DNA of 54,854 bases, counting the filler, from Jimgerdemannia flammicorona (Eukaryota), in the NCBI GenBank assembly GCA_003990765.1. It is 3 parts of 3 records of this genome, joined end to end, with 100 filler letters (N's around TTAATTAATTAA, not from the genome) between each part and the next. Parts side by side here need not be neighbours in the genome. Positions count along the whole stretch, not along the records: positions 18,320 to 36,537 come from RBNJ01002261.1; 2 more parts are not named here. The stretch is one strand, 5' to 3'. The notes under the pieces were generated by a model. That model did no database searches, had not been told where the DNA came from, and worked only from the letters and a program-made list of their open reading frames with translations. Numbering within the stretch: the first letter of the stretch is position 1; the number at the start of each line of letters is the position of its first letter. A program made the translations under genes and the position numbers. This document shows positions 6,147 through 47,159 of this stretch, one piece after another.

Positions 6147-6375
6147 TTTTGCGAGCTCAGTGACTTTAGGCTGGCTGGCCAGCAACAAAGGTAACAAAAC
6201 TTTGGTGACTTAGATCGACTAACATGGTAGCCAATCATCTTTCCGAACATTATTATTGCTATCATTTTGTTTTGCTTAAGTAGAATTATAAGTTTTATCT
6301 TATTCTTATAATATTTCACTCAGAAGCTTGCCTATAGTAGTTATAATATGGGGCGTGCTGCAACAAAGTGAGCAT

Positions 6376-13580: not shown

Positions 13581-14204
13581 ATAACAGTAGACCCTAAGTG
13601 CCTATATATTTCTGATATAATACTCTCTCACCTATAGTTATAGTAAGATAGATATAAAAAATATATAAAAACTTATTTATCTCTATCTTGCTCTTAATGA
13701 TCTTATCTCTCAGACTACTAAAGCTCTACTTGAAAGTACAATTCTATATACTGTGCCCAGACTCACATGCAGCAGTAGATCTACAACCTCATCAATAAGT
13801 ACTACTATAAGACTATACTTTGGCTTATCTATACCTTTGATATCATTATCATTTCTCTTTTCAATAATAGTTAGATAGCTATAAGGCACCATCAAAAGAT
13901 CACCAGCAGGACAGTCCATTTGATGATGATATGGTCACATAAAAGGTTCAGAGAGAGGTTTTCATCAAAAGCTGAAAAGTATGACAAATAAATATATATA
14001 GTCTCAGAGATATATACAAGTAAGACCTATAATTGATATGAGTAGATCAATCATAAGCTAGGTGGGAAGAAGGTATTCTGTTATTATGAGTGTGGCTTGA
14101 ATATTGATAGAGACATCAATGATGTATGCAGGATCTTTCTTCAGGTTTTATTGAATAGTTGCATAGAAGATAAGATATTCACATTTGACAAATTGATAAT
14201 GTAA
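13581..14204 (+). pseudogene. tnpB: TnpB/Fanzor2 RNA-guided nuclease relic (RuvC + zinc ribbon); the N-terminal half is not readable
   Basis: RuvC-I ITVDP/SAYIFLI*YS (DPGVRTFLTWYS; Asp at 13590). Then IYNLINKYYYKT..FDIII, ITSRTVHLMMIWSHKRFRER..KA, VSEIYTSKTYN*YE (E at 14007; TSKTCxxCG) and KLGGKKVFCYYECGLNIDRDIN (DRD at 14106-14114). Confidence 0.9.
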
Positions 14205-18319: not shown

Positions 18320-20339
18320 TTTTTTTAAAAAATAAATCTTCCATCATCTGAAACAGTTGCTTCAGCCGACCAAAGAAAAAAAGGATGCATACCATAGCAA
18401 ACTCCAGTGCACACTGGATCATTGCAAATATTGAGTTCCAATGTGTACAGACATCCAATATAAGCTCTTTCGGGGCTAAACTGATTGCCCTACAATGTGC
18501 AGCAAATTTGTCTCATCATTGTGGAGATGATCAGACCGATACAACTAGTTTGCACAGCTTGGAAATTATACTCAGGGCCCCTCCTCTCTCGGATGTTTTG
18601 TCTATGTGCGTAAGATAGTCCTGAACAGCAAGGTTCAGTATGTGGGCCTGGCATCACACATGGCAGCTTTCTGCACTGAAGGCCACATTTTCCTGTTTGA
18701 GGCTGGCCGCTAAACCTTGGAAAAATGTTGAGTTGTTTGTGGCATTATCCGTCATAATGGCCAAAATCTGTACTTGAAATATTTGGTTGACAAATTTATG
18801 TGAAAATAAGTAACCAATAAAATCTGGTTTGATTTAGGACCTCCCTCAAAATGCCGACCTGATGGCAAGCCCCCCTTTTTTACCTTGGTGGTGATCCCAA
18901 GCTCCCGGATACAACTAATAAAAGCATCTGTGATGTTGTCTCCAGAATGAGGGCCAGCAAGTTTGACAAAGTCAAGGGTGAGAGATTTAAGCTGCCAATC
19001 GAGATCAATCTAATGACCGGTAATGCCCAGAAACGAAATTGCATTGAGGGATGTCCATGTGTCAATTGTAAACGAAATTTGCCTGCTGAATTCTGCTTAT
19101 TGAATGTGAGGTTAAATTGGTGAGCTCTTTTATACAATTCAGCTTGCAAAGGTCATGGTGCTGCCCTTATTTTACCTGAAGTGTCTGGTGGAGATTGTCA
19201 TGCTCCTTCCTATAGGCCTCCAGGACATCTTTGTGAATAGTATCAGCACTTGGCAAATATGAATCATACTTGAGGAGGGCAAAGATACTATGCCATTGAT
19301 CACTCTTGATAGTTGTGAATGGCTGGTCTGTGCACACAATCCAGTGAATGAGCCAATTTCGAAATTCTGCTGAAGAGTATGGCTAAATATTTTTGATTAA
19401 ATGGCATTGTTGGTACAGAAATGGTCAGGCAATCGGATGAATGTACCCACCACAGCTTGGATGTCGATTTTATTTGTCTCTGTGTTCTTTTTGATTTTGT
19501 CAGAGTGCTTGTCTTTTATGTGTCGATTCATGTTCGAAGTTGTACCCCTAAGCATTATGAACTTCTGGCTGGTGCAGTTCATGGGGGTGAATGAAACAAT
19601 ATCATATGTGTCAAAACAATATCTTATGTGTGTCAAAACAAAGTGTCAATAGGTGTGCCTTAATTTTTTACCTGCAATAATTACAAACAACATCATCTTC
19701 TATCTTAGCACAATGTTGCCAGATTTCGGAGCAAGGATTGCATAGAAGGTGTGGAACTATCAGAGATGTTTGACTTGAAGCATCATTGGTACTGTGAACT
19801 GTTGAAGACTGATCTGTCAATATGTGTGTTTGTGTGTTTGCATGTGCATGTGTATGTGTGTGTGTGTATGCGTGTGTATGTGTTGTGTTGTGGATGCATC
19901 CGGCATATGAGTCATGTGGAGGATTTGGATTGGAGGATTCGGTTGAAGGATTCAGATGAGGATTCGGATTGAAGGATTCGAATTGGAGGATTCAAATTAG
20001 AGGATTTGAATTGGAGGATTCAAATTGAGTGATTCGGATTGAGTGATTCAGATTGAGTGATTCGGATTGAGTGATTCAGATTGGGGTGGTTCAGATGGGT
20101 GATTCGGATGGGTGATTCGGATGGGGCAATTCGGATGGAGCGATTTGGATTGAGTGATTCGGATTGAGTGATTCAGATTGGGGTGGTTCAGATGGATGAT
20201 TTGGATGGGGTGATTCAGATGGGGCAATTTGGATTAAATCTGAGTTGATTCAGATGGCTTCGGATTTGAGATTCGAATCAAACCATCATGTGATGAATCA
20301 AATCCAGATTTGATTCGAATTGACTCATTCGGAGCACTA
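18320..20339 (-). mobile_element. hAT (Ac/Restless-like) DNA transposon, 5' part, cut by the gap
   Basis: Terminus TAGTGCTCCGAA on the minus strand from 20339. BED-finger-like GTTSNMNRHIKDKH. Transposase motifs WIVCTDQPFTTI, PSADTI, IMTDNATNN, CQAHILNLAVQD and LILDVCTHWNS. Confidence 0.85.
19925..20330. repeat. Subterminal tandem repeats of the hAT element (GATTCGGATTGAGT-like, 13-14 bp units)
   Basis: Many degenerate copies directly inside the TIR. A (GT)n microsatellite lies at about 19822-19890. Confidence 0.85.

Positions 20340-21288: not shown

Positions 21289-21337
<49 letters not shown>
20551..21337 (+). mobile_element. 5'-truncated L1/Tx1-like LINE 3' end inserted in the integrase
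   Basis: Poly(A) at 21295-21337. TSD GAGAGAACCAACAAGAC at 20534-20550 and 21338-21354. Degenerate C-terminal zinc finger CEEC..PE(H>Y)WLGEC. Confidence 0.8.
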
Positions 21338-21340
<3 letters not shown>

Positions 21341-22512: not shown

Positions 22513-23694
22513 CCCTTTCTCTGCTACCTTACTGGTCACAATGATTTGGTAGGCAACCTTCTGAGTCTACTTTCTACAATCATTACTCCCTCTACCTTGA
22601 GTTGGTTTGCTGTACCTATTGCAGGGTAGTGGGAGGGAGGCAATGGTGACAAGTTGCCCCTTTATCAGTATCAGATTAGTGTCTTCTCTACTTTTTTGTA
22701 GTTTCTAGTGCCTTCAGCTGTATCTGGAGTATATCTGTTTTGGTGCAGTACTTTCTTCCTTTCGTCATCACCAATAAGGTGCTGTCTCAGTATGTCTTGG
22801 GCTACATAGAGAGTCAGCTGACCTTGGGTGTCAAGTGCTCAGTATAGGTTACCTGCAGATCCTCAGTGTCTGTGGTGGGGCCCTCTGACTTTGGTGAGCT
22901 TTCTGGTGAGCACAGTTCTGGCATAGGTGACTGTTTTTCAGATGTTATCAGGATGGGAGGGGAGATGGCTGTCACAGATAGAAGGAAGGGTGATAATAGT
23001 GAACCAGTGGGGTACTAGGCTGGGGGCAGTCATCAGGGCTAGGGTGGACAATATTTCGGTGGGGCCTTTTGATTGACTGGTAGAGGGTGGGGTAGTGCAG
23101 GGGCCAGCATCCTGGCTGTACCCAACTGGAACCGGGAGCTGATACAGCAATGCAATTGAGGCCTGCAGGCTTGTGGAGTGGGGCCTTCCTCATTTGGCAG
23201 TACCCAACTGGAACTGGGAGCTGACATGGCAATATGATTGAGGCCCGCAGGCTCAGGGAGTGGGAGTTGGGTCTTTTCTGACCCTAGCCCATATGTAAGT
23301 CCTTTGCAGAAGGTTCTGCATATAAGTTCTTTACTCACTCACTTTAAATCCACTTTGCTCTCTGTTGTTGATTGGGGGATTTTTTCTTTACCTTGGGCTT
23401 TCTTTTGGGGTTCAGGGGGCTATTCTTTATTCAGTCCTGGCACTGCTAGATCTAATACATAGGTGTGCTCTTACATGTAAACAATGATCCAGTCCTGTTG
23501 AGCAGACAAGTCTGGTCTATATTATGGGGGTCAATATAGCCAGTGTTTGACAGGTATAGCTGGAGCAGTGGGACTGCTGGATAATATAGTAGCCTAGGTT
23601 AATGGGGGGATATTATTCAGTAGGTAGTGGGGGAGGGTTTTGGCCTATATAATCTAGGTTCTCTTCTAATAAAAATCCATGGGACTATGAGTCC

Positions 23695-23731
<37 letters not shown>
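22513..23731 (+). mobile_element. About 1.2-kb poly(A)-tailed non-autonomous retroposon, copy 1
   Basis: Starts CCCTTTCTC and ends with AATAAA..poly(A) at 23698-23731. End-to-end homologous to 39395-40555 in the opposite orientation. Confidence 0.75.
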
Positions 23732-26836: not shown

Positions 26837-28061
26837 GGGTGGCTTGGATGACTTGATTTGGTGGCAAACCAAATCCAGATTTCGCTATATTCTGATTTCC
26901 TTGTTAGAAAAAGAGGCAGCATGAAATTTCTAAGAGATAGAGCTATCTTCTTGAAACATGGTGTGGAGATAGCCTCAAATTACTAGAAAATCATTATCCC
27001 AATCTCTGTTTCTTGAAATATCTCTTGATTGTGGAGATATTTGGACTTGAAGTTTTGATTAGGATTTTAGAAGAACTTGAATAACTTGTCAATGGATTGG
27101 AGAATGGTCATCAGCTTTGGATATATTGTTGCTGATATCCCTGGCGATTTTAGGAGATGTTTGCTCTCAGGGATCCTTTGTGGTTCTCCAGATATAGGCT
27201 AGTTTCTCATGGTAGTGTATTTTGAGGTATCTCCTGGACGTTTTGGTGTACATCTCTGCGAAGAGAGGTTATAATCTCGTTAATTTCGGTGGTAATGTTT
27301 TTAAATATCTTGGAAAGCTCTGTTCCAAAGGGGAGGTCCATGGGGTTCGTATTGAGCTCGAACAATTCAATCAAAGCATGGGAACCAGTCTCCGGTTTTG
27401 ACTTGATTTTACTGGGGTAAGGAATTTGGGTCAACTGAGACTGGAATGTTTACTGAATTCAGTATGTGGATCTTTACTGGGGTCATTCTGACTGGGAATT
27501 CTGGTGTATAGGTCTTCCTGTAATTTGCTCAACTGGGAACTAGGAATGAATCTTGTTCAACTGGGAAATGTTCTAGGTGGCTTGAATGGCTTGATTTGGT
27601 GGCAAACCAAATCCAGATTTCTCTATACTGACTGATTTCCTTGTTATGGAAAGAGGCAGCATGAAATTTCTAAGAAATAGAGCTATCTTCTTAAAACTTC
27701 ATGTGGAGATAGCCTCAAATTACAAGAAAATTATCCTGATCTCTGTTTCTTAAAATATCTCTTAGTTGTAAACTTGAAGTTTTGATCAGAGTTTTGGGAG
27801 AACTTGAATAACTTGTCAATGGATTGGGAAATGGTCTTCAGCTTTGAATTAGTTGTTGCTGAGGTCTCTGGAAATTTTTGAGAAGTGTTTGCTCTTGGGA
27901 ATCCTTGGTAGTTCTCTAGATATGGGCTAGTTTCTCACAGTAGCATATTTTGAGGTATCTCCTTGACATTTTTGTGTATATCTCTGCAGAAAAGAGTCAT
28001 AATCTCATTAAACTTAGTGAGAATATATTTAAGGATGTTGGCAAGCTCTGTTCTAAAGAGA
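26837..28061. repeat. About 490-bp direct duplication (26837-27334 and 27575-28061) separated by CAACTGGG-type minirepeats
   Basis: Co-linear copies visible by eye (GGTGGCTTG..GGCAAACCAAATCCAGATTTC..AAGCTCTGTTC). The second copy is cut by the Penelope-like insertion. Confidence 0.8.
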
Positions 28062-31000
28062 AGTGGAAGAAGAGGGTCCAGCAGGAGCTATGGGAGCAAA
28101 CCCAGAGCCAGTGTCAAAGTGAACAGAAGATATGTAGAAGAGTATATATAAGGGGGATAAACAAAGAACATAACTGAAAATACATCAGCTGTTTATTGCT
28201 ATGTAAAAATGTGGTCCTTATATACAAAATATGATATCCCAAAAGGGAGGATGTGCCACAACTTGGGGTGAACCAAATTAGGCACCAAATGACTACTAGA
28301 GATAAGTAGAGATAAAGAGAGAGCCAATTCCAGTTGCAGGATAAAAATCACAAATAAATACAAACAAAACAAATTCAAATTAAGATTAAAAAATATCTGC
28401 AGACCCTGGAGGGGTGAGCATAAGTGAGGGGTGAGGCCAAATGGAGAAAGCTGCAGTGAGCCCAAGTGAAGTGAGAGGCTGAAGATAGTAGAGGGGAGCA
28501 GAGTGAAGGCTGAGACCCCAGAGTGAGTGCAAGACCCCAGAGGGGGTAAGGATGTTTTTTAATCCTCTCTGGAAGAACCAGAGGCATCAAAAGATAATGA
28601 AAATGCAAAATAAGAGTAATGGAATAGAGAAGAAACAGAAGGAAGATGCAAATGAGCAATAAGAGAGTGTTGAGAAAGAGATGAAAGTCTATGGTGGGAA
28701 AGTGAAGAGTGCAGGACAGTGTCAGGGCATTGTGTAACCCAGAAAGCACAATCAAATGGTACAATAAGAATTGGGGGAGGGAAAGAAGAGGGGGTTCAGA
28801 ATGGGTAAGGGGGGGAGGGAGGAGAGAAAAGAGGGGTAAAGAGAAGAGAGGAGGGAAGAGCAAACAACAGACCATTCAACAGAAAAATTGGGTAGACACA
28901 ATGATGGACCATGAAGTTGCCAAGAACTCAAACAGCAGACACTCAGTCAGAATGACAGGAGCAGCATAATGTAAGACAACAAATCTAATCTCAAATACAT
29001 TCAAGAAGAGTGCGACAAGGGTGATTAGAATAGAAGTCAAGGAACTGTTGGGAGTATGGGAAGTGATAATAAACAATAGTTCAGAAGGAAGAAAGAGAAA
29101 TAGAAAGATCCAAAAAGGGGATACTAGTAGTACTATATACCTAGGTAATAGAATAATGGAGAGGGTAGATGTTATGAAATATAATAGAAATATCAATACC
29201 AGTAATAATGAGAATAATAAAGTCATCAATATATCAGCAAAAGAAGATATCCCCAGTCCAGAACACAATTTAAAGAGGTGAAGAAGGATCATATATCACA
29301 TGAAGTTCATGGGCCAGGCCAATTAGGATAGTAAGAGTAGGGGTATAATTCATTTCTATAGTAATACCAAAAGTCTGATGAAAGGAGCCAAGGGCCAACT
29401 TAAAGTAGTTGAAGTCACACACAAGGAGGGTGAGCTCAATGATAGAAGCCAATGAGACTGGGGAATTCAGAGGGAAGACAATGGAACCCAAGAAGTAGAG
29501 ACAATCATTAATCTTATTAAAGCAAATTATAGTATAGAAAGAGGAGAAATCACTAAAGATCAGATGGGAAAAATGGTGAACAGACATAATGGTGGAGCAA
29601 AAGAGGGCGAGCTCCTGAGTATCATGAAGAATAGTGTACTCAGGCCCAAGATGGTGTTGAAGTAAAGCCATCCAACAGAGAAAGAAGTGGGATACCCACT
29701 TTGAAATCTCAGTGGTCAGTGAATTATATATAGCTATAATGGGACACCAAGCCAAAACGAGCTTGTGGACTTTTGGAAGAGTATAAAAAACTGGAAGATG
29801 AATGTCTGGAGAGGACAAAGAGTCCTGGAAGATGTTAAAAATAGGGTTTGTAAAAGGAGAATTCAAAAGCAATCTGGTATGAGTCAGAGAAACCCAGAGA
29901 AGAGTAAGAATCTCATCTAATTTAAGAGCACTAGACTCATAAGCCACAGCTTGAAGGAGGGCAGAAAGGCCATCAAGATAGAGCAATTTAAGAATAAGTG
30001 CAAAACTCTAATTCTTATTAGTGACTGTAAGCAAATGCAAAGACAATTGCTTGACTGATTTAAGTGCAGTATGCATGGTATAGTCCAAAACTAAGCAAGA
30101 GTGAGCATGTCCAGAAATGGACAGTGAGCAAGCCATGTTGAGAAATATGTAGTATAAAGAGACATTGGGAGGGGGGACCCAATCACTGGAGATATAATAG
30201 CAAGAGGGCATCTCACTATGATCCTCAAAAAAGATAGCAAGGTCAAGAGTATGATGAAAACATATAAGATGAGCTGGATTGGTGAGAGAGAATTGTGAGG
30301 GAGTTGCAGGGAAAACAAAACAAGGCCCCAGGGAAAGGGCAAAGACTTGAAGAGAAGAAAGAGAGCAGTCAGCTAAAGAAAAAGGAGGAGACAAAAGTAT
30401 GCTAAGAGAAGAATAAACCTAAAAATTTAGGACAAGCAACTAGGAAAGGTGAAGGGGGGGTAGTATGAGGAATCACTCAGAGTGTACTAGAAGCAATGAT
30501 GGAATCCAAGAAGGAACAGAGACACTGGAAGAGAACCAAGCTAGGGGGAAGTTTAAGAGCAAGAGGTCTTCTCTTTCCCTCTGACTTTTTTTGAAGGCAG
30601 TGAGTCTGACAAGCAGAAATATACCCCATCAGAGTACCAGATCTTACAGCCACAGACTTTTGTACAGCCCTTACATTTAGAAGCACAGAGAGAGAAGGCA
30701 GAGGAGGAGCCAACAGAGGAGTCAGAGGGAGAGTGAGCAACCAAAGGAGCAGCAGTGCAAGGGACACTACCATAGGAGCAGACAGATTTGGCTGGATGCC
30801 AATAGGCATGGTGGAGGTGACCAGAGCAGACAGTATAGAGCTAAGCTCCAATGGAGCAAGAATTAAGTTGGCAGCCACACTTAGAAGCAGGGGGAACAGA
30901 GGAGGCCTGGCAGGAGAGAGGGATCAGGAAGAAGCTGATGAAGCCTTATTGGGCTTGGCAGGGATCTTAGCAGGGGCCTTGGTGGTAGCAGTAGCAAAGG

Positions 31001-32495
31001 AACAAACCTCAACATGAGCAACAGTATGAGCTTCAGCATAAATGGCCTTAGAGACCAAAACTTCAGAGGAGGCAGATAGGGGAGCAGTAGTGGTGGTATA
31101 AGCAGAAGTGACAGCATATAATGATTTCTACTCATAAAGTCAAGTGACAAAAGAGATACTAGTGAGAAGAAAATGACAAATAGCATCAATGTCAGCAGCA
31201 GTAAAGAGAATGTCTTGGATGGCAAAGCTACAGAAAGGAGCAGTGTCTGCAAAATGGGAAGAGGTAAGAGCCACAAAAGAGACATAGATATGGTAGAAAG
31301 AAGTAGAGGTAGCAGCAGTAGTAGTGGCAGCAGTATTGGTGGTAGTAAGCTTGGCAGCAGCAGTGGCAGCACAACCTCTTCAGAGAGGGCTTGGTGGTGG
31401 GCCTTGGGGAGAATAGAGTAATGGATGGTGGGTGGAGCAACAATGTTGACATTATGGCAGAGATGAGTCTCTTTGGCAGAGAGGGCAAGAACTGACTGGA
31501 ACTGAGTGAGGAGTGGATGACCAGATGGACAAAGGTCCAAAGAGAGGAAAAGGATAGCAGATAAGATATAGATCTTGAATGAGACAGTGGTAGGGATAAA
31601 AGCAGGGGGAAGGAGAGGAGGAAGAACCTTGTCCATAACCTTGTCAACAGCAATAGAGGCCCCAAGAGCAGATGGTATAGTAGTGGAAGAAGAGGGCCCA
31701 GCAGGAGCCATGAGAGCAAACCCAGAGCCAGTATTAAAGTAAATAAAAAATATGTAAAAGAGCATATATAAGGGAGATGAATAAAGAATGTAACTAAAAA
31801 TGTATCAGCCATTTATTGCTAGATAAAAACACAGTCCTTATATACAAAATACAATATCCCAAAAGAGAGGATGTGCCACAACTTAGAGTGAACTGAATTA
31901 GAAACCACATGACTGCTGGAGATAAGTAGAGATAAAGAGGGGGCCAATCCCAGTTGCAGGATAAAAATCACAAACAAATACAAATAAAACAAATCTAAAT
32001 CGAGATTAAAAAACATCCACAGACCCTGGAGGGGTGAGCATGAGCAAGGGGTGAGGCCAAATGGAGTGAGCTGTAGCAAGTTCAAGCAAAGTAAGGGGCT
32101 GAAGGCAGTAGAGGGGAGCAGAGTGAAGGCCAAGACTCTAGAGTGAGCATGTGACCCCAGAGGGAGCAAGGATGTTTTTTAATCTTGATTTGGATTTGTT
32201 TTGTTTGTATTTGTTTATGATTTTTATCCTGCAACTAAGATTGGCTCCCTCTTTATCTCTACTTATCTGTGGTTTCTAATTTGGTTTGCCCTAAGTTATG
32301 GTACATTTTCTCTTTTGGGACATCATATTTGTATATAAGGACTACATTTCTACATAGCAATAAACAGCTGATGTATTTTTGGTTATGTTCTTTATTCATC
32401 TCCCTTATATATACTCTTCTACATATCTTTCATTTGCTTTAACATTAGCTCTGGGTTTGCTCCCATAGCTCCCACTGGGCCCTCTTCTTTCACTA
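28062..32495 (-). mobile_element. Penelope-like retroelement with pseudo-LTRs; no GIY-YIG endonuclease visible
   Basis: Direct pLTRs at 28062-28564 and 31682-32184, plus an inverted partial copy at about 32170-32495. ORF1 from ATG 31711 (MAPAGPSSS). RT motifs FYTLPKVHK..CPII, DFSSFYTI, NYF..HQTFGITIE and YIDD (29222-29233). Confidence 0.8.
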
Positions 32496-32843
32496 TTGAA
32501 TCTTACTCAACTGGAAACATTCTGGTGCTGAGTCCTGCTCAACTGAGAACTCTGATACTACAGCTATACCTTTCACTACCACACCTTTTACTGCTATACC
32601 CTTCATGTCCACACCCATTACATACTTCTATTTTGTTACTCTAATATTCTTATCTTCTCCAAGAGCTTGATATATCTCTTCTCTTTCCTCATCTCATGAG
32701 CCTTCAATGAGCATCTTTCTTTTGGGAGCATGTTGTAGCAGAAATATCACAGTATGGGATAGAAATAAACCACTGCTGTTTATTGAATAGAATGTAAATA
32801 AATTACTTCAAAATAATTTCTGTAAATATTAACTGAATCTGTC

Positions 32844-34892
32844 TGTAAGTGCACAACCTCCAAGCCACCAAAATTACACATCACCCTCTGAACAAGTCAC
32901 TGAAATCACACATGACCTCTGAACAAATCTGGAAATTACCTACTTGATCACGAAGCTAAGTCAAACCAAAGTCACAGCACATAAAGCTGAGTCAATACAA
33001 AGTCACAGAACACAAGATTTATACCTACAGAATCTTACCAATCAGGATCAAATGCATATATACCGAGCACCGAGATGCATCGAATCAGAGAACCAAAACA
33101 AACAACAACCATAACTTCCAAACACACAAACATGACCACCAAGATCTATACCCATATCCACACTGACATTTGGAATGCCATTGTCAATGGAGCCACATCC
33201 CCTCTGCCCCTCATGAATATTCATAGCCTAGCACCCCTCTACTTCATAGAAGCCCGATGGAATGCTCTGAACATGCTTGGTGAGGCCTACCGAATTGGAC
33301 AAATCTCAAGCTACTACTAGATCGGCCATCTCCTGGAAGACATGATCGAACACCACCATGATACAGACATTACCCAGATGTCCCAACACCAGAAGCTCAT
33401 CACCCGCAAACATCAAGAACTCTTCTACAAGTACAGTACCATTATACCCCGCCTCTGAGTTACTACAGCTGAAATGGTTGCTACCCTGTCCTATGGCCAA
33501 ATTGATGACATGATACAAGAACTCAACCACAAGTACCTCGAGTATGTCAAAACCACAGACAGAACCTTCCCACACCCCAATGATCATATCCTACAAATGC
33601 CTCAAGTTGGATATGCCATGAAGGACATTTATGATATAATCTACTTCAATGAAGATGAAGCAGAAGACAATGATCCCTCTGATGCCGACATGACCTCTAG
33701 CCAAGGATCCTTGCCAACCCTGATCACATTGCCAACCTTGCCAATGAACTTACAACAATTCATAACAGCCTATGAGACTTATTGGGACAATGACCACTGG
33801 TATGAATACCAACCCGCTTTTACCCCTGATTACTTCAACTATAATGAAGAGACCGGAGAACACAACCTGTACCTCCAGACAACCCTTGAGATTGAACCAA
33901 CCACTCCACCACCTGAGTACAAGTGATATAAACCACAGCCACCAGCCTACTACAACTCTAAGACTCATAGTGCTGTAACCTATAGAAGGTATACAGATAG
34001 TGAAACCAATGAAAGTGAAGATGATGCACCCCTCCTTCACCCACCAATACTTTATCCAGCATATGAGACAGACAATGCTATCTTGTGGGATAGAGACAAA
34101 GTTCCAATGTATTATTACCTCAGCGAACAAGGAGAAGTAATCCGCAAACCACTTTTCCTGGATAACTACTTCATCAGAGATAATGCAATTGATAGTGATG
34201 TTATTGAGAACTACCCAGACAGTACCTAAACCATAAATAGCCTAGTAGTCATAGTATAGTTAGAGTAGCCTTGTATGATATGACTGTGAACTGACTCAGC
34301 ACAGACAATCTCTTGATATGTCAGATCACACTTGTACTATGTGACTGTATTTCGACTCAGCAAAGCACTTAGTGCTACATCCATATTCAGCATAGTTAAG
34401 ATAGCCCCTCACTAGTATAAATATCCCCTCCCCCAGTCCTCAGAATCTCAGACTCGAATACACAAGAACATTCCCTATAATATCTCTTTACACAACTACT
34501 CCTAGTATAGCAATATCATGAATAGCAAATAAACCCATTCAAATAACCCACAAACCACCCTTAAGTAAATCCACTCCCCATTAGGTCCTACTCCTAACCC
34601 CATTACGAAATTTCCTAATTGGGTATTGTCTGCAGCAATATGCTGATTCAACTAAGCTGGTCTTAGTTTCTTGAACTTCCTGAAATATGGAAAATCCTGA
34701 ACATCCAGAACTAGTCCAAAAGAGGACTTTGGTTGAGACGTCAATCCAAACTTGAAATCAATAAGCATAGAGGACATACTCCATACAAAATTGATCTTGA
34801 CCATAAGAAAACGGTCTTCTAGAACATCCAGAACTTCCAGAAAACCCTTCCAGAACTATATAACGGTTACTCTAAAAAGCAACCCTCTTACA
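32844..34892 (+). mobile_element. 2049-bp solo LTR
   Basis: Ends TGTAAG...CTTACA. 5-bp TSD CTGTC at 32839-32843 and 34893-34897. TATA-like GTATAAATA at about 34415 and AATAAA at about 34528. No gag or pol. Confidence 0.85.
33132..34229 (+). pseudogene. LTR-embedded unknown ORF, copy B (365 codons, 3 internal stops, no frameshift)
   Basis: One frame joins the tracked ORFs 33075-33320 and 33474-33926 and runs on to TAA 34227-34229. The internal stops are TAG/TGA, each one C>T change from CAG/CGA. Confidence 0.75.
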
Positions 34893-35868
34893 CTGTCATA
34901 ATGATAGTAGAGGTATAAGTTCTAAAAGAATAAAAACAAGTAAAGCAGATGTACATTGATACAGTATTTGTTTTTATTTTGGTGTCAATCCATAACAACC
35001 TCACATTACTTATATACCTGAATTCTGAAGTACTGTGTTTTCTTGAAACATATCTATGAATACAGAATCACTAAGCCACAATCAATATCTCTCTGTAAAA
35101 TATAGAATCACTAAGCTACAATCAATACCTCTGACATCACATAGAACTAGCCTGTCATTATGAACTCACTCATAGTAATGTTACATATCAAAAATATTAG
35201 TATATATATATATTTATAAAATAATATATATACATAAAGAATATATAATACAGTAAATAAATAAATACTACTGAATAAGAAAATATATTAGAATATTTAT
35301 ATATAGAAGATAGAAAAATATATAAATATCCAAAATATACAAAAATGTTTAAATGTTTAAAGAGTATATATCAGAGACTATATGTTGTTTAGTTATTAGT
35401 ATTTTTCTACTACAATTATACATATTCTAGTTGCCATTTTCTCTATTTTTCTACCTCTCTTTATTTTTATATTACCTATATACCATATAAAGTCCAATAC
35501 TAGCTCTGTGGTTTCACTCTTATCTATCTTCAACTACATACTGATGAGGGTACCCTTGTGAGCTTTTTTATTATCCCTAGGCAAAATATTGATAAGCAAA
35601 TTATTACAGTCTATTGCTAGATATATACATATATAAGGATTTCTCTATAAAAATAATCTAATAAAGAAATGAAAATAAAAGAAGAATATAAGATCAGAAT
35701 TTTTTCCAAATCTTGCTAAGTTAACAATAATTCTAAAAACAATAAACACCTAATAACAGATATAGAGGTACTAGATATCATATCTTATAATATCTCATGA
35801 CTCTACAAATATACTTATGATAAAACAGAGATGCTCTCTTAGTAGCATCCAGAGTTCAGTATATATAT

Positions 35869-36537
35869 TGTGACGTCTACAATTGACCCTATCCAAATTC
35901 GGAGTACCCTGTGACCACAAGATCAGATGACATTATGGTGCAATAACTGGTGACCAGCCCAATCTGTCAAGTGATTTCACCAAAAGAAGACAAGATGACC
36001 CGAGCCAAAATGAAGACCACATTATTTAAGGAACCCTACTCCGCCTCGAGGATCGGCACCAAAGAACCAAGTACCCACCACACAATGCCTCCTATTCGCC
36101 AAACCAACCAGACCTCCCGCCGCTCTATCCCTTTGCCTGGCCCAAAGACCCTGATCTTTGAAGCTATCAAGAAGGCCATCTGGCGCCCAGATACTTCCGA
36201 ACACTTGAACTTCTACACTGAGGACCTTGGACACTTCATCAACTACCGGTATATAATGACCCAATAGCTCAAAGACACTACCGAACGAATGACCCTCTGG
36301 CATGACTACGAAATTGGACACCGCCTTCGCAATGAGACTCAAGAAGGCGACCAGGAAGACCTCATTGCCGAAATGTTAACCACCAGCCGGCTAATCAAGA
36401 GAGCCCTCCATGTCCATCAAATCTTCCACCATATTCCCTGGGCTATAGCACACTTGCAAGGAGTAACAGCTGGTAGCCTCTCCCGCCTATCAACCGAAGA
36501 TGCTGACTGGATAGAATCCGAAGTAGCCAATGCTATT
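35869..36537 (+). mobile_element. Start of a third long LTR (TGTGACG...) carrying LTR-embedded ORF copy C from ATG 36085, cut by the gap
   Basis: Abrupt compositional change at a TG. ORF MPPIRQTNQTSRR..LIFEAIKKAI..LWHDYEIGHRL..RALHVHQIFHHIPWAIAHLQG is homologous to copy A. The LTR call is by analogy only. Confidence 0.6.
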
Positions 36538-36637: not shown

Positions 36638-36669
36638 GTATAAAAAAAAAAAAAAAAAATCCGCCGCAG

Positions 36670-38358
36670 CTATGATGACTTCCGCGTCTTCGACACAAGT
36701 AACCGTCTGTGGGAAACCCCGACCCTGGCCATCGGCAGCACCAAACCGCTTGCACGCATTGGACACACTGCCACCCTACTCCAAGACGACCGCATGATTA
36801 TTCTGGGCGGCAGCACCGCCCAGCTCAGCAATGTCGGTTTCTGGGAGCTTCAGCCGACCTCCATGGCGGATGTGCTGATTTTTGACATGACTAACCGAAT
36901 CTGGTTGAATGTCAACGCCAATGGAGTCGTGCCGCGGAACATGAGCGGTCATAGCGCAGTTCTGGGTATGTATATGTGTATTTTGTACATAATTATTTTT
37001 TTGGTGTCGAGGATCCCATTCAGGCGGAGATTCTGTGTGAATGGTCCTAATGTCGTTGAATCTCCCTTTGGATACTCTGCAGCGTTGGACGGGAAAATCG
37101 TAGTCTTTGGCGGTGAGGTGGCAGATGGGATTTCCAACGAGGTGTTCCTCCTGGACACGTCGACCTTCACATGGTCAAAACCGTCCATTACAGGACTCCC
37201 GCCGGTGGCGAGGAAGGAACATTCGGGTGGGTGTTGATCGTCGAAGGGACGTTTTTTTCGCTTATTTTGGTTTATTGTATTTGCATTTGATACAAAAGAT
37301 CCAAACCATCCTTTCAATTCGTCCTCTCGCCACCCACAGCCGTTTTCTATAAGAGTCAAATGCTCGTTCTCTTTGGCCGGTCCAGCAACTCTTCTGTACT
37401 CAACGAGGTCTCCATCCTCGACACTGTCCGCTGGCGCTGGACTCCAGGATTCTTTGCCTCTGGCTCTCCCAGTTTGACCTCAGCCTTCGCTGCCGCCTCC
37501 GTCGCTCGAACCCAAACTCCAAATGCAGAAACCAGCATTCACCTAAGCAACGACACTCTGAATGCCGTCGGTGGGCCCGGTGGCCTCACCGGCATTATTA
37601 TCGGCTCCCTCGTCTGCATTGCCCTCGTTGCCTTCCTCTTTGTTCGCAAGCCCTGGCGCAACACCACCCCGGCGCTCATCTACCTCCCCCAATCCAACAA
37701 CGCGGGCCCCGGCTACTCCGCCATTCCCGCCAACACGGGCACCGTCCGCTCCGCGGTACACGGTGCAGCGTACCTCCTCCCAGGTGCTGTCGCCGAGGCT
37801 GAGGCCGCTGCCGGGACAACACAGCCACTTATTGGCGGTGCGCTCGAAGCACAGGAGGCTCACGAATCCCGGCAGCTCAACTCCCGCCATCGCTCGGGCC
37901 ATACCCGTCCCCCGCTGCCGTCCGGCTTCAACGCCCCACCGCCACCGCCCATCCCGCCCCCGCACCTTTACAACGCTCCGCTCGATCCCCCGCCGTCCTC
38001 ATTTGGTTTGCCCGGCTTCAATGCCTCATTGCCACCGCCCAACTATCACAACGCTCCGCCTGATCCCCCGCCACAGCAGGCGAGCTACATGGCGACCGCC
38101 TCACACCATAATTCGCTTGTGTCCACGAATTCCACCCCAGCCCCTGGGATGCGGCAGTTTGACGCGGAGGACGCGAAGTGGATCGAAGCTGAGGATGACG
38201 AGGACGAGGAGGTTGTGATCGGAGGCGGCGGGCCAACGCCGCATGGGTCGAGACCGGCGAGCGGGATTATCGGAGGGCCGTCGAGGTCCTCATCGGGGCC
38301 GGATAACTTTCTGATGACCGCGGAGAGACAGGAGGAATTGGCGCGAGCGATGTCATGA
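36670..38358 (+). CDS. Kelch/galactose-oxidase beta-propeller single-pass membrane protein (5' end lost in the gap)
   Basis: Kelch blades RIGHTATLL..MIILGG, MSGHSAVL..IVVFGG and RKEHSAV..MLVLFG. TM helix LTGIIIGSLVCIALVAFLFV followed by RK. Pro-rich cytoplasmic tail. Two GT-AG introns. Confidence 0.85.
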
Positions 38359-39292: not shown

Positions 39293-39394
39293 ATCGAGAA
39301 AATTCGGATTCGAAATAATGCTTTTGGAATATGCTGCGAGCATTATTATAAGATGATTGTTGAAATTTGACCAACAATATAAATATTAGCTACT

Positions 39395-40555
39395 TTTTTT
39401 TTTTTTTAATGGACTCATGTCCCGCGGAATTTTATTGGAAGGGAACCTAGACTATATAGGCCAAAAACCTCCTCCACCACCCACCAAGCACTGCCCCCCC
39501 ATTAACCTAGGCTAGCTATTGTCCAGCAGCTCAACCATGCCAGACGCAGCAGGGCCTATGTTGGCCCGCACCTCATTCTGCACACCATGCTCTCCCTACC
39601 ACCAGGGGAAACCCAACCATACGTCAATGACCAAAAGCGCATGCCTGAGAACCCAACATATGTACAAGACCACGCCCGAGCCGAATAGAATAGCCCCTAC
39701 CACCCTAAAGAGAATGACAGGCAAATAAAAAACCCTCATCAAAGTACAACATGGTGGGTAGGGCCTGGTTCTCCCAGTTGAGGTGAGTAAAGGACTTACA
39801 TGTGAGGTGGGAGGAAAACCCCCAATACCCCACTACTCAAGCCTGTGGGCCTTGATCACATTGCCGTGTCAGCTCCCAGTTCTAGTTGAGTGTAGCCAAG
39901 ATGTCTGAAATGGGTAGTCTTGGGCCCCTGACTCCCTGCTGACTGCCAAAAGAAGCCAATAGTGACACCTACCACCTAACCACGCCGCACCAATCAAAAG
40001 GCCCCACCAAAGCAGCACCTGCCCCAGCCCCAATGACCGCCCCCAGCCTGGCACCCTACTGGTTTACCATAATCGCCCTTCTGCCTATCTGTGACGGCCA
40101 TCTCCCCTCCCATCCTGACAACACCCGAAAAGCAGTCACCTATGCCAGAACTACACTCGCTGGGAAGCTCGCTAAAGCCAGAGGGCCCCACCACAGGCAC
40201 CGAAGACCTGCAGGTAACCTACACTGAGCACTTGATGCTCAAGGTCAGCTGACTCCCTATATAGCCTGAGACATACCAAGACAACACCTTGTTGGAGACG
40301 GCAAAAGGAAGAAGGTGCTGCACCAAAACGAGTACACCCCAGATGTAGCCGAAGGCATCAGAATCCGTGAAAAAGTAGAGGAAGCACCAATCTGACACCG
40401 ATAAAGGGGCAACTCATCATCATTGCCCTCCTCCCACCATGCCCCTGTAGGCATAATAAACCAACCCGAGATAGAGGGGGTAATAATAGGGGAAAGAGGA
40501 CTTAGAAGGTCGCCTACCAAACCTTGTGACCGGTAAGGTAGCGGAGAAAGGGTGA
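39395..40555 (-). mobile_element. About 1.2-kb poly(A)-tailed non-autonomous retroposon, copy 2 (younger, CpGs retained)
   Basis: Poly(T) at 39394-39407. TSD AAATATTAGCTACT at 39381-39394 and 40556-40569. Same 5' start CCCTTTCTC as copy 1. Confidence 0.85.
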
Positions 40556-41098
40556 AAATATTAGCTACTATTAAGATATAATTACTTATTGACTATTTAT
40601 AATAATTACTCTACTATTTTTCTTTTAAAGTTATGAAAGTAAAATGCTGCTAATATTTTCTGAAGGTTAACTTTGTTAATATTATCTTATTATAATAATA
40701 TAAAATATTTTTAGTATATATTTAATATAGTAAATTTATAAAATTATTATTATTATTATATATTAATTTTTTTTTTTATTATTTTTTTTTAATAAATTTA
40801 GCTTTAAAATATTATAGAATAAAAAATATATAATTAAAACCTTTAGTTATAATGATAATGATAATAATAAACAAATTATTTTATTTTATTTTATTTTATT
40901 TTTATAATTTTATAATAAATTATTAAATATATAATATTATTAATAATAATATAACTTTAATATATATATATATTACTAATTCTAATAATTTTTAAACTCA
41001 GATAATAAGACTATATTATTTAAAAACTCTTAAACTATCTAAGTATCTCTATTATCTCATTTTATATAATAATAATATATATTATAAATTACTAAAAT

Positions 41099-44000
41099 TA
41101 TAACAATTTTACAATTATATTTAGTTTTAGTACATTTTTGTATCTTTTAGTTAGTCTTTTCTTGTCATTTCTTGAATATTCTACTATGTTCTGCCACCTT
41201 CTACTTACTTAGAAACTTTCTCTTGATACTCAGACACTATTAGAACATTCTTATCTTTTCTTAGTACTAAGTATCTTATCTTAGCTAGTTATGAAACCTT
41301 TCAGAATATTGTAGAACAGTATTAGTCAGCTTTGCTGAGAACCTATTTCTTGGTATTTCTCTTCCTTTCCAAGATCCTTTCAGATCTTTCTTTTAGATTA
41401 TATATAAATATTCTTATTTTTTATCTAAATAAAGCTCAGAATATTTTCTCTCAAAAATCCTTTAAGAATACTTGAACCTTTAAGTATCTCTTTGAGCTAC
41501 TTTAGACCAACTAGAACCTCTAGATTTAGCTGCTTCCTCTTAAAGAAACTAGAACTATTATATTTAGTAGCAGCAGTATTGTTATATCTTACCTTATTAA
41601 GAAACCTCACACAAATTCAGAAACCAGTCACAACTAGTCACACAAATCTGAAATGAGCTGCAAAGAGTCAGTCTATCAGCCAGACCTCTCTGGAGAAGCA
41701 AGAGAACCACAAGCCAATATAGAGGATATGATCAATGCTATGGCCCACTAAATCCAAGAACTTTAAGCATAACTAGAATAGCAGAAAATAAGAACTGTGA
41801 GTATATCATATTCTACGATAGTACTAGTCAGTTTTAAGCCACTTAAATATCTTTAATAGTCATTAAGGAGAACTATCTACAGATGCATAGACCTTCTAGT
41901 TGGACCAATACTTTGAGCTTATAAGAATAGAGGAAGACATATGTATAAGTCCAATTTGCTGCAATACTTCTTTGAGAGAATGCAGCTATTTGATAACACA
42001 ATTACATCATGACTACATCTATATACTCATATATATAAATTAGGAATTGGGAAGTCTTCAAGAGAGTCCTTCACAAGTAGTTCAAGCCTGCTAATATTAT
42101 CAAGCTAGTCAGAGATAAGCTAGCAAACATCAAGTAACTCAAGTCTGTTTAAAGCTATAATATATAATTTCTGTCAATTCTACTTGAACTACCAGTGATA
42201 GCAGAGGACAAAAAGATAGACTACTATGTCTGAGGCCTGAAAGAAAACACACTAGTCAAGGTTGAGCTAGAAGAGCCACAAAGTCTTAATGAAGCTATGA
42301 GGATTGCTGATAGATTTGATGTCATCACCTTTAGTAATCACTTTAAACCAGAATACTATAAGAAGAACCACTTTGAGAACCACCACAAGAACTAACTAAG
42401 AACAGTTGGCCCAGTATCAATGGACTTAAACACCATGAATAAAAAGAACACCAAGCTTACCTCTGAAGAAAAGAACTATCTGAAGAAATCCAAAGTTTGT
42501 TTCTTCTGTTGCCAAATAGAATATATAGCAACCAAATGTTCTAAGAAGACTAGCAAACTCTCAAGACCAGTCACTATGTTGTCCAAGGATACATCTGTCA
42601 ACTCCACCACCAGTCAATCTGAGCTCAAGGTCAAGAAGCTTTATCTGAAGGCCCAGACTCCTCAATATCAAACAGAAGGAGCTATCAGTCTTGACCTACA
42701 CTCAGTCAAATAAGTCACTATTCTAGCCAAGGGCCAAACTCTGGTGCCTACTAGAATTGTAGTTCAATGTCCTAAAGGACATTATGCTAGAATTGTACCA
42801 TGATCAAGACTCAGTATCAAATATTATTTAGATATAGATACTAATATCATTGACTCAGACTTTCAAGGACAAGTTTAAGTTCTGCTTATTAACCAGAAGG
42901 ATCAAGACTATACAGTCAAAGAAGAAGACTGAGTTGCACAAATGATCCTAGAAAAAGCCTGTCAACTCAAGATTACAGAAGTCCAAGAACTCTCTGAAAC
43001 TAAACAAGATCAAAAAGATTTTGGTAGTACTGATCAAGCAGTAAGTCTTAGTGAAAATCGAGCTCAAGCTATACTCATTTTTAAAGACCTAGTCAAAGAA
43101 AAAGAAGTTCAAGTACTTATAGATAACAGAGCTGTAGGAAACTTCATCAATCAGAACCTCATTGAAAGCCTCAAGATCCTTACCAAGCTTGTACCCAAGA
43201 ATAATAATATAGTCACTACAGATAGTACTCTACATCCCATCAAGTCAATTGCCACCAAACTACCCATCAAGATCCAGAAATATTGGAAACAAGTAGACTT
43301 TGAGGTTGCATCACTAGAAGATTATGACCTGATCTTAGGAAAACTCTGGCTTATGAAACACAACTCAGATATTAATTGGTACAAGAATGAAGTCACTTTA
43401 CTTCAAGATGAAGCCAACATTACTATCAAGACAGACAAGACTACAAGTAAGACCCAGATTGCAATACTGTCAGCTATATAGTATAAGAGAGCACTCAAGA
43501 AGGCAATACATATCTTTATTGTAATAGTCTATTCTAAGAAAAAAGACAAGAGACTATCAGTCAATGAAAGCATCAAGTTACTGCTAGAAGAATTCAAGGA
43601 TGTCTTTCCAGACAAGCTACCTGGTCTACTACCTATATATGAAGTTGATCATGAAATTGAACTGACCCCAGGAGCTGTACCATCCAAGAAACATATATAC
43701 TACATATCACTACTTGAAATTGAAGCAGTCAAGAAGGAACTAGAAGAACTACTTATACAAGAAGCCATCCAGCCAAGCAAATCTTCTTATGGCTCACCAG
43801 TCTTATTCATCAAGAAGAAGGATAGTACCCTGTAAATATGCATAGACTATCATGTACTCAACAAACTCACTGTCAAGAACTGCTATCCACTACTCTTGAT
43901 TGATCAAATCTTTGATGCTCTCAAGAATACCAAGTACTTCACCAAGTTGGATCTCATGTCAAGATATCACCAGATTTTAATCAAGCCAGAAGATATTTCC

Positions 44001-47000
44001 AAGACTATATTCATGACTCCCTTTAGACTCTATAAATTCCTGGTCTTAGCATTTGGTCTCACCAATATACCTGCCATATTCCAGACCCTGATGAATAAGA
44101 TATTCAAGGACCAACTATTTATTTTTCTATTAGTATATCTTGATGACATCCTGATCTTTAGTGCAACTAAAGAAGAACACCTCAAACACATTTGAATAGT
44201 CCTAGAGATCCTACGAAAACACAAGCTTTATGCCAAGCTCAAGAAGTGTGAATTTTTCAAGAAATAAGTCAAATACCTTAGCCACATTGTCTCTATACAA
44301 GAAATTCAAGTAGACTTACACAAGATAGAAGCAATTGAAGAATGGCTCATTCTGTTGAACCTCACAGAACTCTGATCCTTCCTTGGTCTAGCTGGCTACT
44401 ACTGCTGCTTTGTTAGAAACTTCTCAGGCATTGCTGAGCTACTGACTAACCTCATAAGGAAGGCCCTACACACAGACTACTATATACCCTATACCTGGGA
44501 TCTCTTCTGTCAACAAGCTTTTCAAGAACTCAAAAACCACCTGATCTATACTCTAGTCCTATATAATGCAGATCAAGGTCTAAAATTCATAGTCACTACT
44601 GATGTATCAAATTTTTCCATTAGAGCAGTTCTGTTACAAGATGATGATAAAAGACATCATCCTATTGCTTTCAAGTCCCACAAGTTGGCTCCAGCTGAAC
44701 AAAAGCTAGCCACTCATGAGAAGAAACTACTGGCAATAATATATGCACTAGACTACTAGCAATACTATCTAGAAGGTATTGAGTTTGATGTTATCACTAA
44801 TTACTAATCCTTCAAGTATATTAATACCCAATCTACTCTGTCATATCTACAAGCCAAGTAGAGCCTCAAACTTCAAACCTTCAACCCAATGATTATCTAC
44901 AAGCCTGGCAAGATACTTGTAATACCAGATATCTTATCAAGATGTCCAGACCTTACCACAATCATGCAGGTCACCTTGGCATCAGAATTCCTAGACCAAA
45001 TCAGACAAGCTTATAAAGAAGATATAGTTGCCACTAGAGTTTTCTCAAATGAGCTCAGGGATATATATACTATTGAGGACAACCTGATCTATTATCAAGA
45101 TCAAGTCTACCTATCTGAAAACATGAACCTATGCTACAAGGTTTTGCAAGAACACCATAACTCACCTCTTGCCAGTTACCTGGGAATTGAGAAGACTATT
45201 AAGAACATTCAATGCCAATACTATTGGCCAAGCATGGTCAAGGAAATTAAGAACTATGTTACCAGCTGGTTTGCTACAACTACTGCCAATTCCCATCAAG
45301 AAATTCAAGCAAGTTACTATGGACTTTATAACTCAACTACCATGAACTCAATCTGGTGCTAATGCTATCATTATATTCATTGACTGCCTGACCAAAACCA
45401 TGGTTGCTGAACCAACCACTACTAATGGTACTATATCTAAGATTGCAAGAATCTTCTTTAAGTCTATCTTCCATCACTATGGTCTACTATGAGTAATTAT
45501 CAGTAATCATAACCCTAAGTTTACCAGTCACTTCTGGCAAACTCTCTTCAAGACCCTGGGAACTCAATTGGCTATGTCTACTGCTTTTTATCTACAAACT
45601 GATAGACAAACTGAGCACATGAACAGAACTCTAGAACAAATGCTTAGAAACTATGTTTCTTATGAGCAAGATGATTGGGACCACTATCTGACTTATGCAG
45701 AGTTTGCATATAACAATGCTGTTCAATCATCTACTGGTCTTTTCTCTTTCTAGTTACTCCATGATCAAGATCCTAAGACTCCTGCAAGTCTATTCCCTTT
45801 TAAGAAAAGCAGTTAAATACAAGTCTCTACTACCAAGAACCTCACAGACAAAATAGACAAACTACTCAAGATTGCCACTATGAATCTTCAGAAGACTCAA
45901 CAGCATTAAGCCAAGTATGCTATAAGAAATGCTATAATATTACTTATACTATTGGAGATCAAGTCCTACTATCTACTGAGAATCTCAAGATATAATCTCA
46001 AGTTAACTGCTCTTTGAACAAGTTCCAATCCAAGTATATTAGATCTTTTGAGATCACTGAATAAGTCTTTGCATCCTCCTACCACCTTAAGCTATCTGAA
46101 ACTATGAGAGTACATTCAGTCTTTTATGTATCATACCTCAAGACCTGGAACTAGTCACCACCCTGCCCTGGTTAAATTTCTAAGCCTTCTGCTCTTGTAA
46201 TTATTGAAGACCATATTAAGTATGAAGCTGAGAAAATTCTTGACAAATGAATCTACTACCACTATCCTAAATACCTAGTCAAGTAGATAGATTATCCTGA
46301 ATATGATACTATCTGGGAACCACTGGTCAATCTCAAGAACTCTCAAGATCTATTTTAAGACTTTAAGACAAAACACATTACTCAATCCCTATAGTGACTT
46401 TCTTGGATTATCAATGACCTACAGTAATGACCAGTGCCTTATATATTGGAAGTTTACTTTGGAACCCTAGAACCAGCAGAACATTTAATGAACAAAAAGT
46501 CCACCAAAATAAAGCTACTAGCTAGATTCAAACCTCTCCTAGTTGATTAGTCTGATAATAAGCCCTCTGCCCTATATAAGGATGGCCAATTCCCACCAAT
46601 ATACCAATATAAGTTTGAGAAATTTTGATTAAGTATATCTAGTCTTGTGTTACCTAAGAACTCAATGAGGATATTGGTTCTTAAGAAGAGAGAAATGTAA
46701 CAATTTCACAGTTATATTTAGTCTTAATACATTTTTACATCTTTTAGTTAGTCTTTTCTTATCATTTCTTAAATATTCTACTATGTTTCACCATCTTCTA
46801 CTTGCTTAGAAACCTTCTCTTGGTATCTAGATACTACTAGAACATTCTTGTCTTTTCTTGGTACTGAGTATCTTGTCTTAGCTAGTCATAGAACCTTTCA
46901 GAACATTGTAGAACAGTATTAGTCAGCTTTACCAAAAATCTATTTCTTGGCATTTCTCTTCCTTTCCAAGATCCTTCTAGATCTTTCTTTCAGATCATAT

Positions 47001-47159
47001 ATAAATATCCTTATTCTCTACCTAAATAAAGCTCAGAATATTTTCTCTCAGAAATTCTTTAAGAATACTTAAACCTTTAAGTATCTCTTCAAGCTACTTT
47101 AGGCCAACTAGAACCTCCAGATTTAGCCACTTCCTCTTAAAGAAACTAGAACTATTATA
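41099..47159 (+). mobile_element. Full-length degenerate Ty3/Gypsy chromovirus: LTR-gag-dUTPase-PR-RT-RNaseH-IN-chromodomain-LTR
   Basis: 464-bp LTRs at 41099-41562 and 46696-47159. TSD AAAAT at 41094-41098 and 47160-47164. PBS-like T(G>A)GTAGCAGC. PPT at 46683-46695. Zinc knuckle CFFC..(H>Y)IATKC, PR LIDNRA(DSGA), RT YLDD, IN QTDRQTEHMNR, chromodomain YEAEKILD..YLVK..WEP at 46221-46368. Confidence 0.95.
42621..43034 (+). pseudogene. dut: dUTPase domain inside the retrotransposon polyprotein
   Basis: All five trimeric dUTPase motifs in order: ISLDL (AGxDL), P*SRL (PRSGL), NIIDSDFQG (GVIDxDYRG), ED*VAQMI (GDRIAQ) and QDQKDFGST (RGxxGFGST). Same frame as the zinc knuckle and protease. Confidence 0.9.

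Follow-up and report, generated by a model that had tools for sequence, protein, structure and literature searches.

A probable solo long terminal repeat of Jimgerdemannia flammicorona whose U3 region appears to hold a 365-codon gene

A 2049-bp unit in the DNA of Jimgerdemannia flammicorona (32844..34892, plus strand) encloses a 365-codon gene (33132..34229, plus strand) for an orphan acidic protein, which in this copy is a pseudogene recognizable from its reading frame, its relatives P0003 and P0002, and its coding signals. Both lie in the stretch of DNA analysed here, hereafter the window, which is 54,854 nucleotides long, filler included, and joins three parts of three records of GenBank assembly GCA_003990765.1, with the unit in the part from RBNJ01002261.1 (18,320 to 36,537). 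We consider it probable that the unit is the solo long terminal repeat (LTR) of a very abundant retrotransposon family of a soil eukaryote, and that the unique 3' (U3) region of this LTR holds the gene as a genuine component.

Structurally, the unit opens with TGTAAG and closes with CTTACA, a 6-bp inverted terminus of the TG..CA type, and it is flanked by a target-site duplication, CTGTC, whose left copy (32839..32843) exactly matches the right copy (34893..34897). The preliminary description of this DNA, made from the sequence alone, had reported TG..CA ends, a perfect 5-bp duplication and the lack of gag and pol at the element, and all three observations hold: among the 16 frames scanned, the nearest retro-element Pfam matches lie at 42933–45362 and belong to a separate Gypsy element with LTRs of its own. 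Since the CTGTC duplication directly adjoins the 2049-bp unit on both sides and no retro-element domain occurs in the neighbouring frames, we call the element solo.

That the unit belongs to a dispersed family is apparent from public sequencing data. A sequencing-run index returned 12 runs that share words with the element (at most 0.14 of the sampled words), 10 of them labelled soil metagenome and none recorded as RNA. Contigs of four public runs (X1, X2, X5 and X3) were placed on 31800–35900 with a cut-off of at least 80% likeness, yielding 3079, 408, 264 and 379 placed contigs, respectively, which are 80–99% alike to the element overall, mostly 90–99%, and differ from it mainly by transitions. 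Every bin from 32759 to 34950 is covered in at least three of the four runs, the flanking bins (32622–32758 and 34951–35087) have zero depth in all four, and one X5 contig diverges from the window exactly at 32844, as a loose end. The copies in the four runs therefore end at the element's own two boundaries and, because contig cover is confined to these limits, the unit represents a repeat family of high copy number that has its ends at the TG and CA. Neither a second copy of the element nor a diverged copy of its protein was found in the 54.9-kb window, and scans for the DNA of other copies, by protein pattern in metagenome, viral and genome contigs and by exact pattern in viral and genome contigs, returned nothing. 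As a separate observation on the surroundings of the unit, one X2 contig joins 31994 to 35340, skipping 3345 bases, and both flanks of the solo LTR may belong to a single older repeat broken up by later insertions, the solo LTR among them.

The unit is very likely an LTR, as the preliminary description had proposed; the termini, the 5-bp duplication, the family boundaries, a polypurine tract and the order of promoter and polyadenylation motifs all argue, indirectly, for this identity. The tract was seen in an X3 contig, one of the two 5' flanks listed, in which the purine run AGAAGGGGAGAG and then a T stand immediately before the element's first 17 bases, and these 12 purines are as expected for the sequence that would precede the 3' LTR in a full element. 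The same layout, with a purine tract followed by TGTAAC, precedes the 3' LTR of the window's Gypsy element. Within the unit's final quarter, TATAAATA, a candidate LTR promoter (34416..34423, plus strand), is followed by AATAAA, a candidate polyadenylation signal (34528..34533, plus strand); as motif matches, their order is compatible with a division into U3, repeat (R) and unique 5' (U5) regions. On the motifs only, the putative limits on the plus strand would be about 32844–34450 for U3, about 34450–34560 for R and about 34560–34892 for U5. For a DNA transposon, by comparison, we found an inversion of only 6 bp at the ends and no transposase domain.

Further motifs accompany the gene on both sides. 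The 5' part of the putative U3 contains tandem 31-bp repeats on the plus strand, in pairs at 32885–32929 and 32953–33014, the second of which carries the core GCTGAGTCA; two inverted copies (34270–34300 and 34331–34361, minus strand) are 77% complementary to 32986–33016, and an alignment of four copies reveals a shared core. Both exact matches of the GCTGAGTCA 9-mer in the 54.9-kb window fall inside the element, as do 5 of the 11 matches with at most one mismatch. The TGAGTCA within these repeats we take to be a site of the AP-1/Gcn4 type. Repeat number varies among copies: in two runs, joints at 32884/32886 leave out 31 bases. The repeat pair at 32953–33014 stands 40–100 bases upstream of a TATA-like motif, GCATATATA (33054..33062, plus strand), a candidate promoter motif for the open reading frame (ORF), which in turn stands 70 bases upstream of the ATG; the inverted pair (34270–34361) lies downstream of the ORF and 55–150 bases upstream of TATAAATA at 34416. 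A TATA-like motif near 33054, upstream of the LTR's own TATA and poly(A) signals, was thus correctly noted in the preliminary description, as a motif match. The ORF lies inside the unit and upstream of the LTR TATA at 34416, which is where a gene coded within U3 would be placed.

From a coding perspective, the frame at 33132–34229 contains 4 stops if the terminal codon is counted, whereas the two remaining plus-strand frames contain 15 and 40; openness of this degree (at most 4 stops in any of the six frames) arose in 1 of 5000 first-order Markov simulations. Guanine is distributed unevenly over its codons, at 25% of first, 10% of second and 13% of third positions. The preliminary description of a single frameshift-free ORF over this interval stands insofar as the frame runs through without a frameshift, but it is interrupted by three in-frame stops: TAG at codon 63 (33318..33320) and TGA at codon 109 (33456..33458), both sense codons in P0003, and TGA at codon 265 (33924..33926), a sense codon in P0002, all on the plus strand. 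Because of these three nonsense codons the window copy of the gene is dead. The further proposal that each solo LTR would leave behind a potentially expressible gene must be qualified in the same way, since the frame is that of a conserved family gene, whereas the copy at hand carries three nonsense codons.

Evolutionarily, the frame has counterparts elsewhere. A search of about 5.8 billion clustered proteins and 1.84 billion representatives recovered P0002 and P0003, which come from two different sources and each from a contig of about 1 kb. P0003 (128 amino acids) shares the ATG, matches residues 1–128 at 83% identity and runs past Met115, and it is probably cut off at the end of its contig; since it continues beyond Met115, a single frame in that copy spans the N-terminal third and what follows it. 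P0002 (247 amino acids, intact) aligns with residues 115–364 at 61% identity and 81% positives and has the same stop, the only gaps in its alignment to the window protein being two of 2 residues each. Among 797 candidates no longer or fused form of the protein was found, and the only shorter form was P0003. A further candidate, P0004 (E = 5e-6), a 68-residue tandem-repeat protein that draws many spurious Pfam matches, was rejected as a relative, its score being inflated by six repeats of a 38-residue match.

The divergence between these sequences is of the kind expected of a protein-coding gene. When the window's codons were substituted with the spectrum of the contig differences down to 61% identity, the share of positives in 1000 neutral runs was 72.5% on average and 77.7% at its highest, compared with the 81% observed for P0002, and 15 of the 1000 runs gained no stop (83 of 1000 if half of the path is charged to the P0002 lineage). 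A second test drew on the 40 best-supported of about 600 contig differences (40 + 558), 24 of which fall inside the ORF; in this best-supported subset, 14 of the 24 are synonymous, against 33% expected (p = 0.008), and 13 of the 24 are at third positions (p = 0.03). These indirect tests agree in pointing to purifying selection on the plus-strand frame and, judging from the sequence comparisons as a whole, we conclude that the frame represents a genuine gene, one that the family conserves, and is not a product of chance.

So far as short contigs can tell, no physical break separates the gene from the LTR at either side in other copies. The upstream region is bridged into the ORF by contigs covering 32983–33226 and 33027–33197 (X2) and 33124–33394 (X5), and the end of the ORF is bridged into the downstream LTR by contigs covering 34104–34275 (X3) and 34233–34421 (X5). 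None of the six joints listed in the four runs corresponds to a form of the LTR that lacks the ORF. This evidence draws on 32 of the 4136 contig pieces, and the contigs are short.

The protein itself is an orphan. No family was found for it in Pfam, PHROGs or NCBIfam, no Pfam family for P0001, P0002 or P0003, and no match below E = 0.39 in a profile search of the PDB. Its isoelectric point (pI) is 4.6, with 55 Asp and Glu against 22 Lys and Arg, 27 Pro, 33 Tyr and no Cys, and its C-terminal 195 residues have a pI of 4.05. In a low-confidence AlphaFold2 model, helices extend over residues 2–142 and are followed by short strands and coil; composition and predicted secondary structure therefore fit the helical N-terminus and acidic, Pro-rich tail described beforehand, while the structure prediction that the preliminary description had recommended gave no confident fold. 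P0001 and P0002 have several strictly conserved blocks in common, and this conservation suggests binding or folding units within the protein and not pure disorder. The product was considered as a Gag or Pol protein and rejected, since it carries neither a zinc knuckle nor any enzyme domain. A relationship with Sag, Nef, Tas or Bet was not found either, as no Pfam family matched and the PDB search yielded nothing below E = 0.39.

Taken together, we posit the following scenario. A very abundant LTR-retrotransposon family would carry, within a U3 of about 1.6 kb, a 365-codon protein-coding gene; because reverse transcription copies U3 to both ends of the element, the gene would be present in both LTRs and left in every solo LTR. 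At the window locus, the two LTRs of an integrated element would have recombined to a solo LTR, with the 5-bp target duplication kept. Transcription of the gene would start from a putative promoter inside U3, composed of two 31-bp repeats with a TGAGTCA core, the TATA-like motif at 33054 and the ATG 70 bases later, and its message would end at the LTR's own AATAAA at 34528, a signal that the LTR and ORF transcripts might share. Because the 31-bp repeat, inverted, also precedes the main TATA of the LTR, both promoters would answer to one factor. The product would presumably be an accessory protein selected for the element's benefit, and its helical N-terminal part and acidic, Tyr- and Pro-rich C-terminal part make a regulatory or adaptor protein the most plausible role. 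On the balance of the evidence, we regard a solo LTR of this kind, with a genuine gene in its U3, as the most probable account of the locus, held with moderate confidence.

Several observations weigh against this account. At the level of the element, paired copies around gag-pol, or a primer-binding site after 34892, were not seen, and the polypurine tract was observed in a single contig. In the two DNA runs, moreover, summed contig depth over 34403–34813 is 2–5 times that over the ORF, so that related LTRs may share R-U5 and differ in U3; related families may have this R-U5 without this U3, or R-U5 may be better conserved. (Depth in X5 over the same interval is far higher still, and X5, which is only guessed to be RNA, was excluded as evidence of transcription.) At the level of the gene, P0002 and P0003 are the only two relatives among all the proteins searched, and P0002 begins at Met115, whereby the N-terminal third may lie outside the gene in that lineage. 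The selection test covers 24 of about 600 differences, in a subset chosen by the tool and without a codon alignment. The exact antisense frame has 4 stops in 366 codons, equal to the sense frame; it is open because the sense codons TTA, CTA and TCA are nearly absent, and the plus frame is favoured over it on account of the third-position excess of differences. Finally, AlphaFold2 on the three-sequence alignment gave a mean predicted local distance difference test score (pLDDT) of 33, and the ESM Atlas model of P0002 had a pLDDT of 0.39 and reached a template modelling score (TM) of at most 0.30.

Some of these points would be equally at home with a gene that is only a passenger, that is, a host or foreign sequence captured into U3, which looks conserved through copy-and-paste and decays copy by copy. 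An orphan protein with no family and no confident fold, a decayed window copy, and an R-U5 whose depth in the DNA runs is 2–5 times that of the ORF, as relatives without this U3 would produce, all fit such a history. Against it stands the pattern of divergence: P0002, at 61% identity, keeps 247 open codons with in-frame gaps only, its replacements are more conservative than those of any of the 1000 neutral simulations, and synonymous and third-position differences are in excess. A free-standing host homologue was not found either, the 1.84 billion representatives having yielded three matches, of which two are copies of the gene and one is the spurious repeat protein. We therefore consider a passenger gene unlikely, while ranking it among the better surviving alternatives to an accessory gene kept by the element.

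A somewhat less likely possibility is that the 2-kb unit is not an LTR at all, being instead a self-contained, non-autonomous mobile element with one gene, mobilized in trans by an integrase of the retroviral type, to which the TG..CA ends and the 5-bp duplication would be due. In the data examined no copy stands beside gag-pol, and the unit possesses its own motifs resembling a promoter and a poly(A) signal, together with its single gene, as such an element would. The polypurine tract right before the start of the unit in one contig speaks for an LTR, however, as does the arrangement in which TATA precedes AATAAA in the 3' quarter and variable 31-bp repeats occupy the 5' part, which fits U3-R-U5; furthermore, the terminal inverted repeat is just 6 bp and the protein lacks an integrase or transposase domain.

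The inverted 31-bp repeats raise the question of whether the ORF was brought into an ordinary LTR by a second transposon, with these repeats as its ends, since the copies at 32953–33016 and 34270–34361 bracket the ORF and their arms are 77% complementary. We think this very improbable: the repeats are tandem pairs of variable number, each 40–150 bases upstream of a TATA motif, none of the six listed joints in the four runs joins the LTR without the bracketed segment, and X1 depth is about 400–1270 over the ORF and near 625–760 at the 5' end of U3. That the frame is merely open by chance in C/A-rich, G-poor DNA, as its equally open exact antisense and the long spurious frames yielded by neighbouring C/T-rich DNA might suggest, can be all but dismissed, given that its openness was matched in only 1 of 5000 Markov simulations, that two independently predicted proteins are collinear with it, one with the same start and one with the same stop, and that the codon positions carry coding signals.

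Returning to the solo LTR with a gene in its U3, a more elaborate form of this reading can be put forward, though we hold it to be a long shot. Here the LTR would be a self-contained cassette of U3-internal promoter, gene and poly(A) signal, and the product, acidic and rich in aromatic residues, would be a Tas-like feedback activator acting on the 31-bp modules. The flanking of the gene by two promoter-like modules of a single repeat lends some support to the cassette idea. If the idea were true, a retrovirus-style U3 regulatory gene would exist outside vertebrate retroviruses, with thousands of solo LTRs scattering expressible copies.

The remainder of the window is rich in other repeats. At 41096–47050 lies the Gypsy element mentioned above, a decayed Ty3/Gypsy chromovirus with many stops and with LTRs that measure at least 300 bp and show 87% likeness; its domains comprise, in order, a Ty3 capsid/gag, a dUTPase, RVP_2, reverse transcriptase, RNase H, an integrase zinc domain, a Tf2-type SH3 domain and a weak chromodomain. 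Upstream of the solo LTR, at 28059–32495, a repeat of about 330–430 bp occurs in direct copies (28059–28397 and 31679–32018, 85% alike) and in a third, inverted copy (32170–32495, 85–93% alike), with an interior of 3.3 kb. The long minus-strand ORFs of this region, rich in Leu, Ser, Pro and Phe, look like artefacts of a C/T-rich strand, and Pfam searches of the frames found nothing. A YTLPKVHK in the 29270–30007 frame presumably recalls a reverse-transcriptase motif, and the layout of direct plus inverted repeats seems to us to recall Penelope-like elements, both likenesses being unconfirmed. An inverted pair of repeats of about 1.1 kb (22545–23731 and 39394–40521, 79–83% alike), each ending in poly(A)/poly(T), and a further 47-base poly(A) run at 21294–21340 look like poly(A)-tailed retroposon copies. 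A tandem array of about 20 imperfect 14-bp copies occupies 19956–20233, in a strongly G-skewed region. As to base composition, a 7-kb block of 18–31% GC lies between gene-like regions of 45–59% GC (7000–14000, 2700–6200 and 36644–38358). The host genes in the window include a Chk2/Rad53-type kinase on the minus strand, whose exons are set apart by short gaps that stay in frame, and a Kelch-repeat gene resembling KLHDC2; an Atlas search with the kinase frame gave mixed phyla, and Rfam and tRNA scans of the window were empty. In the chromovirus, the dUTPase lies between gag and protease, and dUTPase-bearing chromoviruses are described from basidiomycetes and Tuber (PMC2864245). These features hint at a fungal host without proving it.

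The interest of a gene in this position is a general one. Retrotransposon LTRs are as a rule regarded as control regions that encode no protein, and a solo LTR is credited with no more than promoter or enhancer activity. A conserved gene encoded by an LTR would, by comparison, be carried twice per element, would be proof against the recombination that leaves solo LTRs, and would be spread over many genomic copies, a big stock from which new host genes, or a dose-dependent factor of the element, could arise. Its products would also form an orphan protein family, one hidden under the label 'LTR' in standard transposon annotation.

How does such a gene compare with the extra genes of known retroelements? 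Among plant LTR retrotransposons, the ORF1 of Ogre is an extra ORF of this general kind. The ORF0 of rice Retrosat2, RIRE3 and RIRE8 lies between the 5' LTR and gag-pol, and the LTRs of Retrosat2 exceed 3 kb (PMC3485330). Plant elements of this type and the window element are alike in their long LTRs and in an orphan extra ORF that evolves fast, is kept within a family and has no assignable function. They differ in placement: the window ORF lies inside the unit bounded by the duplication and not between a 5' LTR and gag, and solo LTRs do not keep ORF0, because ORF0 is outside the LTR. Cassandra elements, which are of the TRIM type (miniature retrotransposons with terminal repeats), have 5S rRNA-like sequence inside their LTRs (10.1101/2023.07.14.548913, PMC10886601) and likewise carry a gene-like unit with its own promoter in both LTRs; that unit, found in a plant element that is not autonomous, is an RNA polymerase III gene fragment some 120 bases long, whereas the window gene is a protein gene of 1.1 kb. 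Among fungi, the U3 of crapaud from Podospora is variable and under 200 bp, and the sections of the source available mention no ORF in it (PMC10787394).

The full-text literature searched, outside which most subscription journals and Repbase-type libraries lie, contains no description of a protein gene wholly within an LTR other than in retroviruses, and in that literature LTR-internal protein ORFs appear to be described only for mouse mammary tumour virus (MMTV), although an earlier description is possible. Retroviruses thus furnish the nearest parallels. The tas/bet genes of foamy viruses and the lentiviral nef are accessory genes at the 3' end that reach into U3, and in foamy viruses a second, internal promoter and the LTR promoter answer to one activator. 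These dual promoters would parallel the 31-bp repeat modules before both TATA motifs of the window element. No sequence similarity of the window gene to foamy-virus tas/bet or to nef was found; moreover, tas/bet and nef start in the interior of the element and merely overlap U3, while the window gene and its candidate promoter lie wholly inside the LTR. By position, the closest counterpart is the sag gene of MMTV, known as the 'LTR ORF' in U3: both are genes of about 320–365 codons placed wholly in U3, a location that would duplicate the gene in the two LTRs. The carriers and the products differ, MMTV being a vertebrate betaretrovirus with env whose Sag is a type II membrane glycoprotein, and the window gene encoding an acidic protein with no Cys and no Pfam family in a high-copy genomic repeat of a soil eukaryote. 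If our reading is correct, the gene at 33132..34229 would give the retroviral U3 genes sag, nef and bel a counterpart beyond the vertebrates.

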